From positions 353,338,001 through 353,402,000 of the forward strand of contig OZ024743.1 in NCBI GenBank assembly GCA_964016885.1: a stretch of DNA of 64,000 nucleotides, read 5' to 3'. Position numbers and translations under genes: made by a program. How positions within the stretch are numbered: position 1 is the stretch's first letter; each line of letters begins with the position of its first letter. The notes under the pieces are model-generated. The model was not told the origin of the DNA, searched no databases, and saw only the letters and a program-made list of their open reading frames with translations. This DNA comes from Eledone cirrhosa (taxonomy: Eukaryota). Positions 60,192 through 63,123 of the stretch are shown here, one piece after another.

Positions 60192-62661
60192 GTAATATTA
60201 TGGTGTAACGGTAACGCGTCTGATTCCAGGTAATCTTGTTGAGTAACGGTAGCTCGTCTGATTCCAGGTAATATTGTGGTGTAACGGTAGCTCGTCTGAT
60301 TCCAGGTAATCTTGTGGTGTAACGGTAGCTCGTCTGATTCCAGGTAATCTTGTGGTGTAACGGTAGCGTGTCTAATTCCAGGTAATCTTGTGGTGTAACG
60401 GTAGCGTGTCTAATTCCAGGTAATCTTGTGGTGTAACGGTAGCGTGTCTGATTCCAGGTAATCTTGTGGTGTAACGGTAGCGTGTCTAATTCCAGGTAAT
60501 CTTGTGGTGTAACGGTAGCGTGTCTAATTCCAGGTAATCTTGTGGTGTAACGGTAGCGTGTCTAATTCCAGGTAATCTTGTGGTGTAACGGTAGCGTGTC
60601 TAATTCCAGGTAATCTTGTGGTGTAACGGTAGCGTGTCTAATTCCAGGTAATCTTGTGGTGTAACGGTAGCGTGTCTAATTCCAGGTAATCTTGTGGTGT
60701 AACGGTAGCGTGTCTAATTCCAGGTAATCTTGTGGTGTAACGGTAGCTCGTCTAATTCCAGGTAATCTTGTGGTGTAACGGTAGCGTGTCTGATTCCAGG
60801 TAATCTTGTGGTGTAACGGTAGCTCGTCTGATTCCAGGTAATCTTGTGGTGTAACGGTAGCGTGTCTGATTCCAGGTAATCTTGTGGTGTAACGGTAGCT
60901 CGTCTGATTCCAGGTAATCTTGTGGTGTAACGGTAGCTCGTCTGATTCCAGGTAATCTTGTGGTGTAACGGTAGCTCGTCTGATTCCAGGTAATCTTGTG
61001 GTGTAACGGTAGCGTGTCTGATTCCAGGTAATCTTGTGGTGTAACGGTAGCGTGTCTAATTCCAGGTAATCTTGTGGTGTAACGGTAGCTCGTCTGATTC
61101 CAGGTAATCTTGTGGTGTAACGGTAGCGTGTCTGATTCCAGGTAATCTTGTGGTGTAACGGTAGCGTGTCTAATTCCAGGTAATCTTGTGGTGTAACGGT
61201 AGCTCGTCTGATTCCAGGTAATCTTGTGGTGTAACGGTAGCTCGTCTGATTCCAGGTAATCTTGTGGTGTAACGGTAGCGTGTCTGATTCCAGGTAATCT
61301 TGTGGTGTAACGGTAGCTCGTCTGATTCCAGGTAATCTTGTGGTGTAACGGTAGCTCGTCTGATTCCAGGTAATCTTGTGGTGTAACGGTAGCTCGTCTG
61401 ATTCCAGGTAATCTTGTGGTGTAACGGTAGCTCGTCTGATTCCAGGTAATCTTGTGGTGTAACGGTAGCTCGTCTGATTCCAGGTAATCTTGTGGTGTAA
61501 CGGTAGCGTGTCTAATTCCAGGTAATCTTGTGGTGTAACGGTAGCGTGTCTAATTCCAGGTAATATTGTGGTGTAACGGTAGCTCGTCTGATTCCAGGTA
61601 ATCTTGTGGTGTAACGGTAGCTCGTCTGATTCCAGGTAATCTTGTGGTGTAACGGTAGCTCGTCTGATTCCAGGTAATCTTGTGGTGTAACGGTAGCTCG
61701 TCTGATTCCAGGTAATCTTGTGGTGTAACGGTAGCTCGTCTGATTCCAGGTAATCTTGTGGTGTAACGGTAGCGTGTCTAATTCCAGGTAATCTTGTGGT
61801 GTAACGGTAGCGTGTCTGATTCCAGGTAATCTTGTGGTGTAACGGTAGCGTGTCTGATTCCAGGTAATCTTGTGGTGTAACGGTAGCTCGTCTGATTCCA
61901 GGTAATCTTGTGGTGTAACGGTAGCGTGTCTAATTCCAGGTAATCTTGTGGTGTAACGGTAGCGTGTCTGATTCCAGGTAATCTTGTGGTGTAACGGTAG
62001 CTCGTCTGATTCCAGGTAATCTTGTGGTGTAACGGTAGCTCGTCTGATTCCAGGTAATCTTGTTGAGTAACGGTAGCGTGTCTAATTCCAGGTAATCTTG
62101 TGGTGTAACGGTAGCTCGTCTGATTCCAGGTAATCTTGTGGTGTAACGGTAGCGTGTCTAATTCCAGGTAATCTTGTGGTGTAACGGTAGCTCGTCTGAT
62201 TCCAGGTAATCTTGTTGAGTAACGGTAGCGTGTCTAATTCCAGGTAATCTTGTGGTGTAACGGTAGCGTGTCTAATTCCAGGTAATCTTGTGGTGTAACG
62301 GTAGCGTGTCTGATTCCAGGTAATCTTGTGGTGTAACGGTAGCTCGTCTGATTCCAGGTAATATTGTGTTGTAACGGTAGCTCGTCTAATTCCAGGTAAT
62401 CTTGTTGAGTAACGGTAGCTCGTCTGATTCCAGGTAATATTGTGGTGTAACGGTAGCGTGTCTAATTCCAGGTAATCTTGTGGTGTAACGGTAGCGTGTC
62501 TAATTCCAGGTAATCTTGTGGTGTAACGGTAGCGTGTCTGATTCCAGGTAATCTTGTGGTGTAACGGTAGCTCGTCTGATTCCAGGTAATCTTGTGGTGT
62601 AACGGTAGCTCGTCTGATTCCAGGTAATCTTGTGGTGTAACGGTATCGCATCTGATTCCAG
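60192..62661 (+). repeat. 38-bp tandem repeat derived from the 5' half of tRNA-Trp (~65 units)
   Basis: Unit gtaatcttgtggtgtaacggtagc(gt/tc)gtct(g/a)attccag aligns to tRNA-Trp ggccctgtggcgcaacggtagcgcgtctgactccag. Confidence 0.95.
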
Positions 62662-62697
62662 TTCGGAAGGTTTCATGTTCGAATTTCGTTGGAGTCA
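62626..62697 (+). pseudogene. tRNA-Trp(CCA) pseudogene terminating the 38-bp array
   Basis: The last unit continues ttcggaaggtttcatgttcgaatttcgttggagtca (3' half with B box GTTCGAAT). Stems are mismatched; T-runs follow downstream. Confidence 0.8.
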
Positions 62698-63123
62698 CGT
62701 CCAATGTTTTATTTTACTATTAGTTATATGTTTTCCGTAAAATTTCTTTAATTTGTTGTTGCTGTTCTTCTTCTTCTTGTTTGTCATTTTTTCTCTCTCT
62801 CTCCGAAAGAAATTAAACTTGAGGAAGATAGGGCGCTTCACCAGGTTTTAAAACATGCTAAGTGTTCCACGTATCTTTTGGACGGAAGGGAAGTATCTAG
62901 TACTACATTATCTATATACTACTATCTAATATATAATTCTCTAAGGCTGCAGAGCGAATCGAAAGAAAAAAAAAAATTTGACAGCTCTTTCTAGAAGGTG
63001 AAGCAAACACGTCGAATGCGTAAGAGGTAGAATATTTGTTTTAGAAAACGCGACTACTGATTAAAACAGGATATGTGAAACTAATTTCTATTCTTGTCTC
63101 TAAAAGAACTTGCAAGCGGATTA

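Follow-up and report, generated by a model that had tools for sequence, protein, structure and literature searches.

A stretch of the Eledone cirrhosa genome in which the front half of a tRNA-Trp gene is repeated some 65 times raises the question of what such an array is: a source of RNAs resembling 5' tRNA halves, a DNA copy of such RNAs, or a minisatellite that started inside a tRNA gene. It lies near the right end of the window, by which we mean the whole stretch of 64,000 nucleotides analysed here (positions 353,338,001 to 353,402,000 of contig OZ024743.1, called C4 below). The reading that we prefer, with a probability of roughly 80%, is that of a minisatellite confined to one locus, its unit taken from the first 38 bases of a decayed tRNA-Trp pseudogene, likely multiplied by duplication at the DNA level and likely functionless. 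The features at the array are the following.

60192..62661, plus strand: 38-bp minisatellite of 65 units (TRF, units cut in register)
62626..62697, plus strand: terminal unit plus 3' half, together a full-length decayed tRNA-Trp pseudogene
62677..62685, plus strand: single B box GTTCGAATT, with the final C of the consensus lost
62707..62715, plus strand: first T runs 3' of the pseudogene, resembling a Pol III terminator

TRF describes a tandem array of period 38 with 65.0 copies (60192-62661, plus strand, 2470 bp, 95% matches), in agreement with the place, period and approximate copy number given by an earlier, sequence-only reading of this DNA; the number 65 is that of one assembly. Cut in register, the array falls without gaps into 65 units belonging to 11 variants (represented by 25, 18, 11, 2, 2 and 2 units, plus five singletons), with a mean pairwise difference of 2.0 in 38 bases (5.3%). 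The unit consists of GT followed by nucleotides 1-36 of the tRNA-Trp(CCA) gene, that is, the 5' strand of the acceptor stem, the A box, the D arm and the anticodon CCA with one further G, very much as had been read from the letters (about two upstream bases plus the tRNA up to the anticodon and a G). Its 3' end (CCA-G) lies one base past the anticodon, which we take to be Sprinzl position 37 and presumably coincides with the canonical 37/38 position of tRNA introns. Outside the acceptor stem the majority unit differs from both flanking tRNA-Trp genes by three C-to-T changes and nothing else, the type of difference noticed beforehand, and every actual unit has at least one change beyond these three. 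Head-to-tail, with a unit of 10-100 bp, a total length of at most a few kb and interspersed variant units, the array has the dimensions and the internal pattern of a minisatellite (VNTR). Identical units were not significantly clustered as neighbours (21 vs. 15.7, p 0.063). As to coding, there are 87-88 stops in each plus-strand frame; the open stretches of up to 417 codons on the minus strand are as expected for a repeat. The unit junctions read TTCCAG/GTAAT, with CTGAT or CTAAT in front, and look like a splice acceptor and a splice donor placed back to back, a likeness that is probably due to chance, without an identified host gene.

The first reading had correctly described a 3' half on the last unit alone (62662-62697), no TTTT inside the array and T runs downstream. 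AAAA does not occur within 60192-62661 either, and the first TTTT after the array is at 62707. Its picture of about 65 A boxes upstream of one B box holds in part: the A-box consensus is matched by 60 of the 65 units and the B box is single, but the latter has lost its final C (both boxes judged against the usual consensus). The 'full tRNA-like copy' that was thought to cap the array turned out to be a pseudogene, uncalled by ARAGORN and unmatched in Rfam up to E=1. It shares 54 of 72 positions with the intact gene at 56853 and 53 with that at 63124, and 9-10 of the 36 bases of its 3' half differ. Of its 21 stem pairs, 8 are Watson-Crick, including 1 of the 7 in the acceptor stem, compared with 18 in the gene; there are no compensatory pairs, and the paired acceptor, D, anticodon and T stems of a functional tRNA gene are not found. 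Five changes (G1A, G2A, C11T, C13T and C31T, counted relative to the closest of four paralogs compared) are common to the last unit and the four unit types examined, and their columns are invariant across the 65 units. The D and acceptor stems are broken by lesions and the longest exact match between the unit and the functional gene is 10 nt. Since the source has decayed by 15-25% and the divergence among units is about 5%, the expansion likely took place after pseudogenisation.

The tRNA-Trp genes of the window, beside the pseudogene just described, are these.

56432..56503, plus strand: second decayed tRNA-Trp pseudogene, the leftmost copy of the cluster, without an array
56853..56924, plus strand: intact, intronless tRNA-Trp(CCA) gene (ARAGORN, Rfam)
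63124..63195, plus strand: intact, intronless tRNA-Trp(CCA) gene (ARAGORN, Rfam)

They belong to a tRNA-Trp(CCA) cluster of about 95 kb (C4:353394432-353489800, from window position 56432 onward and reaching about 88 kb past the window), of which the source of the array is also a member and at whose left edge the array is placed. The cluster contains 73 Trp-like copies, 54 of them called as Trp by ARAGORN (264 kb examined). Its core consists of homogenised higher-order repeats, which propagate a 5'-truncated pseudogene too, and its edges are older and more diverged. In the core, GT precedes most of the copies, and the first two bases of the unit are hence probably genomic leader. A second Trp cluster (70 kb, about 43 copies) is found elsewhere on the same contig. 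None of the listed copies of either cluster has an intron, all being contiguous across 37/38, which is not the arrangement of an intron-split or permuted tRNA. A breakpoint shared at 37/38, which the sequence-only reading proposed to look for in other half-tRNA arrays, did not emerge from the Trp pseudogenes: truncated copies begin or end near positions 15, 19, 20, 21/37, 39, 41, 43, 52 and 58 (BLAST ends), and one deletion rejoins at 37/38. The latter is seen in a pseudogene at C4:277408100, where nucleotides 21-36 have been deleted and the ends rejoined over an AG microhomology, at the CCAG/A site. A rapid turnover of tRNA clusters and pseudogenes is documented in the available text of PMC2888827.

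To the left of the array the surroundings are of a different nature.

60097..60191, plus strand: DNA derived from spacer, directly adjoining the first unit in place of the normal tRNA upstream flank
58841..60145, plus strand: 49-bp minisatellite seeded by the same spacer (26.6 copies, 98%)

The DNA in front of the array resembles a spacer that is single-copy at two sites deeper inside the cluster (88 bases aligned at 85% and 79 at 80%), the homology stopping at CTCC (60189), two bases short of the array. Against these spacer copies, the 46 bp preceding the array reach scores of 69 and 53 (attained in 0 of 500 shuffles), and against the upstream flanks of nine genes 10-18 (p 0.07-1.0). Between one of the spacer copies and the gene that follows it there are about 385 bp, from which we infer a deletion of about 0.4 kb. 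The 38-bp and 49-bp arrays stand on either side of one junction, 46 bp apart, and the 49-bp array likely arose in the same manner on the junction's other side. Another minisatellite of the window (72 bp, 53198-54843) has a seed unrelated to tRNA, with a single-copy counterpart nearby; both it and the 49-bp array begin just upstream of the 5' end of a minus-strand SINE copy. Beyond the pseudogene, the 3' flank is weakly similar to that of cluster-edge paralogs (4 of 11 tested, p 0.002, 0.014, 0.016 and 0.046, uncorrected).

The history that we propose would begin with a gene at the cluster edge losing its upstream flank, probably through the deletion of about 0.4 kb, and then decaying by 15-25%. 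A 38-bp duplication, by slippage or break repair, would have seeded the repeat, and slippage together with unequal exchange would have led to the 65 interleaved variants. The seeding step is conjectural, because no microhomology is present exactly at the array junction; neither does a hairpin span the unit, the only stem found there being one of 3 bp that ends at its last base. The membership in the local cluster, the spacer junction and the shared lesions support the earlier suggestion of an origin in place from a tRNA-Trp gene, in its DNA-level version, and the neutral satellite then named as the null hypothesis is the best reading. The 37/38 endpoint of the unit is likely incidental.

A way to put this locus in perspective is to look for similar arrays in the whole genome (3.0 Gb, 1796 contigs). 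We have used exact patterns for the unit and for the junction, which diverged copies could escape, and all of their matches (58 of 58 and 37 of 37, respectively) fell in this array; a DNA search gave a single candidate. No arrays were found at the other Trp copies, about 115, and a partial-tRNA array was absent from the 70 kb of the second Trp cluster and from the 100 kb of a Thr cluster. For other isotypes, two patterns were applied that recognize intact motifs of TAGCTCAG-type tRNAs only. The first, an anticodon loop followed by an A box, had 10 matches; inspection of five showed normal genes for Lys and Ile, a 39-bp array of unrelated sequence and one match due to chance, and the remaining five fall into the same array or clusters. 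The second, based on the D arm, had 29 matches, and 18 regions spanning 25 of them showed no half-tRNA array. Thus, the half-tRNA arrays of other isotypes that the first reading had proposed to search for were not found among the TAGCTCAG-type tRNAs searched, nor was a second one for Trp with the exact patterns. As a background, sixty 10-kb pieces taken at round coordinates (599,800 bases) contained 15 distinct arrays (16 rows) with a period of 15-100, at least 10 copies and at least 90% match, or about 25 per Mb, none of the 15 being derived from tRNA or SINE. Roughly 0.2 arrays would be expected in the approximately 8-9 kb of Trp-like DNA and, on a rough estimate, several in all tRNA families together.

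A much richer picture was obtained for a tRNA-like SINE of this genome, of which one copy in the window served as comparison.

63735..63915, plus strand: copy of the abundant tRNA-like SINE, A box at 63739; comparison element

The repeats of the genome have an octopus-like look. The heads of this SINE number 31 per 600 kb (octopus tRNA-derived SINEs are cited in the accessible portion of PMC4758252). Duplicated heads with periods of 20-32 gave 169 matches (at least 31 loci among the matches listed), those with periods of 32-44 gave 37 (8 loci) and longer periods one, from a motif pair that is itself rare; the patterns could detect ends at 27-39, 39-51 and 51 onward only. Of two segments of the SINE body, one gave 8 matches at 7 loci and the other 2 at 2 loci, that is, at least 39 duplicated loci for heads vs. 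9 for the two body segments, the intact motif pairs being 6 and 7 per 600 kb for the head and 17 and 14 for the body. We examined 22 SINE loci, most of them chosen for multiple matches, and 20 carry between 3 and 83 heads, on 11 contigs (C1, C3, C5, C10, C12, C13, C15, C18, C21, C25 and C1573), with periods of 27, 28, 29, 33, 44 and 45 bp. In 19 of the 20 arrays the heads run on into a B box or the SINE body, the same layout of many A boxes and one B box, and since this layout recurs at 19 other loci, on an unrelated tRNA-like SINE, the Trp array is likely a functionless copying stutter. The idea of a shared breakpoint fares better here, as in tRNA-like numbering 18 of the 20 arrays have their end within 36-40, a range that includes the Trp endpoint, within the limited ranges searched and among loci that are not independent. 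Single duplications of a SINE head end anywhere between 27 and 41. The 29-bp unit is the span of a small DNA hairpin (-2.9 kcal/mol) with a TG microhomology and was found on three different SINE body types; it has junctions in common with the 44/45-bp unit and occurs together with it in two loci, which means that the SINE-head loci are not independent. Taken together, the excess of heads and the ends at 36-40 are beyond pure chance. No cephalopod SINE-head satellites were found in the literature, as represented by titles and the beginnings of abstracts and including few subscription papers.

SINEs are not the only abundant elements that form arrays. The window contains a decayed LINE-like fragment (about 57380-58400) with a weak RVT_1 match nearby (E 0.016, below the cut-off), and one segment of it (about 58170-58290) forms 41-50-bp arrays at several loci. 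A Pol III promoter is therefore not required for abundant elements to seed arrays. A LINE-like 47-bp array at C3:18.6 Mb extends over some 14 kb.

Several other explanations of the Trp array have to be weighed against a minisatellite without function. It could be transcribed and active, producing a concatemer of 5'-half-like RNAs or an antisense RNA to tRNA-Trp, or acting as a TFIIIC-binding boundary at the cluster edge. The 60 intact A boxes among 65, the absence of T runs on either strand and the location at the edge of an apparently active tRNA-Trp cluster are compatible with such a role, and an antisense unit could form a duplex of -44.8 kcal/mol with the 5' half of the tRNA (-83.7 if perfect). 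However, in yeast, according to the consulted part of PMC11724288, TFIIIC binding is driven mainly by the B box, the A box binding weakly, the natural spacing between both boxes is 31-93 bp and an upstream pseudo-A box gives rise to less than 10% of longer transcript. The array has one B box, which is damaged, and the last two or three A boxes lie within 31-93 bp of it. A long Pol III concatemer is unlikely, because this B box could serve only A boxes at such distances, and any Pol III transcript would be predicted to initiate no further upstream than the last two or three A boxes. Adding the 10-nt limit of exact matching to the functional gene and the broken D and acceptor stems, an active array appears very unlikely. 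The sequence-only reading had also offered an origin from a 5'-half RNA. In the form weighed here, a 5' tRNA half, cut at the anticodon loop or at an intron site, would be ligated or reiteratively reverse transcribed and inserted. The end of the unit at what we take as the canonical intron position and a left end that joins unrelated spacer near the gene start could be explained in this way. Nonetheless, two bases of the unit are genomic leader, no intron is seen in the Trp copies listed, all units carry the lesions of the decayed gene, the last one continues into a 3' half and a flank weakly like those of cluster-edge paralogs, and no poly(A) tail is seen. The 36 gene bases also exceed known halves, RNAs of 30-33 nt that are cut upstream of the anticodon (mouse serum; PMC3654920, available text). 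With neither a mature 5' end, nor a length of 30-33 nt, nor the sequence of an expressed functional tRNA, a retroposed half is highly improbable, and this part of the earlier proposal is not supported. Finally, the array or most of its length could be an artefact of assembly, in favor of which it can be said that the three runs with 58% of 120 sampled words are one sample, maybe the assembly's own source. Against this speak the 11 variants, with linked diagnostic changes and interleaved without any long repeated block, the private changes in both terminal units and a variant pattern that appears like that of real minisatellites, and we give hardly any credence to an artefact.

A broader alternative is that Pol III heads are hot spots, the segment with the A box being preferentially duplicated with ends in exposed DNA between the A and B boxes, or, in a variant route, reverse transcriptase re-priming at the 5' end of the SINE RNA. 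The Trp array would then be the tRNA-gene member of a genome-wide class, with no function implied. The head matches given above (169 and 37, at no fewer than 31 and at 8 loci) against those of the body (8 and 2, at 7 and 2 loci), despite body motif pairs being about twice as common intact as head pairs, point in this direction, as do the 18 of 20 arrays ending at 36-40, the presence of the 29-bp unit on three SINE body types and a strong bend from +27 to +37 described for yeast TFIIIC-TFIIIB complexes (PMC11724288, consulted part). The Trp pseudogene deletion rejoined at the same CCAG/A site and the 60 intact A boxes also count against the reading that we prefer. Yet the hairpin span and TG microhomology explain the 29-bp unit at the level of sequence, its co-occurrence with the 44/45-bp unit in two loci takes away the independence of the counts, and the searches saw ends at 27-39, 39-51 and 51 onward only. 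Moreover, the LINE-like segment is also hot without a Pol III promoter, the Trp source was without its flank and the B-box base before the expansion, and no arrays were found at the approximately 115 other Trp copies or in the Thr cluster. On balance we consider hot spots of this kind unlikely, and it is only slightly less doubtful that A-box heads amplify into an undescribed class (at least 19 SINE arrays and one of tRNA-Trp) with ends between the A and B boxes. Should Pol III heads be hot spots after all, Pol III promoters would actively seed satellite DNA, and multi-head Pol III RNAs could come from some of the arrays.

Read as a minisatellite born from a decayed tRNA-Trp pseudogene, the array can be compared with several known systems. 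Minisatellites (VNTRs) of moderate GC content have a unit of 10-100 bp, tens of copies, interleaved variants and a birth from local sequence, and the Trp array differs from them only in its seed, a tRNA pseudogene. The SINE-derived satellites of squamate reptiles (sSat; Vassetzky et al., 2023, PMC10702118), as far as the available text describes them, likewise repeat one portion of a Pol III element related to tRNA; their terminal unit is longer and extends as far as the end of the element, the alternating variants are specific to each locus and the origin is in place. They derive, however, from SINEs and recur at many loci, whereas the Trp array is a copy of a true tRNA gene, does not match the SINE and was found with exact patterns at one locus; sSat3 units measure 67-215 bp vs. 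38 bp here, and the main snake unit holds the B box, while the Trp unit has the A box only. It is the SINE-head arrays of this genome that fit the sSat description directly. The amphibian repeats PolIII/TAN, OAX, Rana/polIII and Hy/polIII (same source and extent) also contain a tandem tRNA-derived Pol III promoter, but in units of about 200-360 nt or longer that are highly repetitive and in some cases transcribed, in contrast to a 38-bp, A-box-only, single-locus array. The pseudogene arrays of plastid trnF(GAA) (Poczai and Hyvonen, 2013, PMC3786074, available part) are tandem partial tRNA copies beside the gene as well; those are plastid and include varied parts of the gene, while the Trp array is nuclear and contains one fixed 5' segment of a pseudogene 65 times. 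The 5' tRNA halves or tiRNAs, in the available portion of PMC3654920, cover the 5' part of the tRNA to the anticodon loop, as the unit does, but they are RNA from mature tRNA, whereas the array consists of DNA and its units combine leader bases, 36 gene bases and lesions. No minisatellite of the 5' half of a nuclear tRNA gene was found among the titles and beginnings of abstracts covered, which included few subscription papers.

By itself the Trp array carries little weight, as a clean and datable case of minisatellite birth from a tRNA pseudogene. The more useful by-product is that the tRNA-like SINE carries satellites of the reptile sSat type with a strong bias to the A-box head, a dataset in which to ask whether Pol III promoters, hairpins or reverse transcription seed satellites. 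The Trp array would also mislead tRNA annotation or small-RNA mapping. Two further tRNA-like collections were observed along the way. The tRNA-Thr(AGT) cluster (C1:243620001-243720000, 67 calls in 100 kb) includes copies with switched anticodons (ACT, AAT, TGT, AGG, AAA and AGA), and a dispersed element, present on several chromosomes with both flanks shared, has an internal tRNA-like gene with the anticodons GGC, AGC, GAC, GGT and GTC, perhaps a case of tRNA capture by a mobile element.
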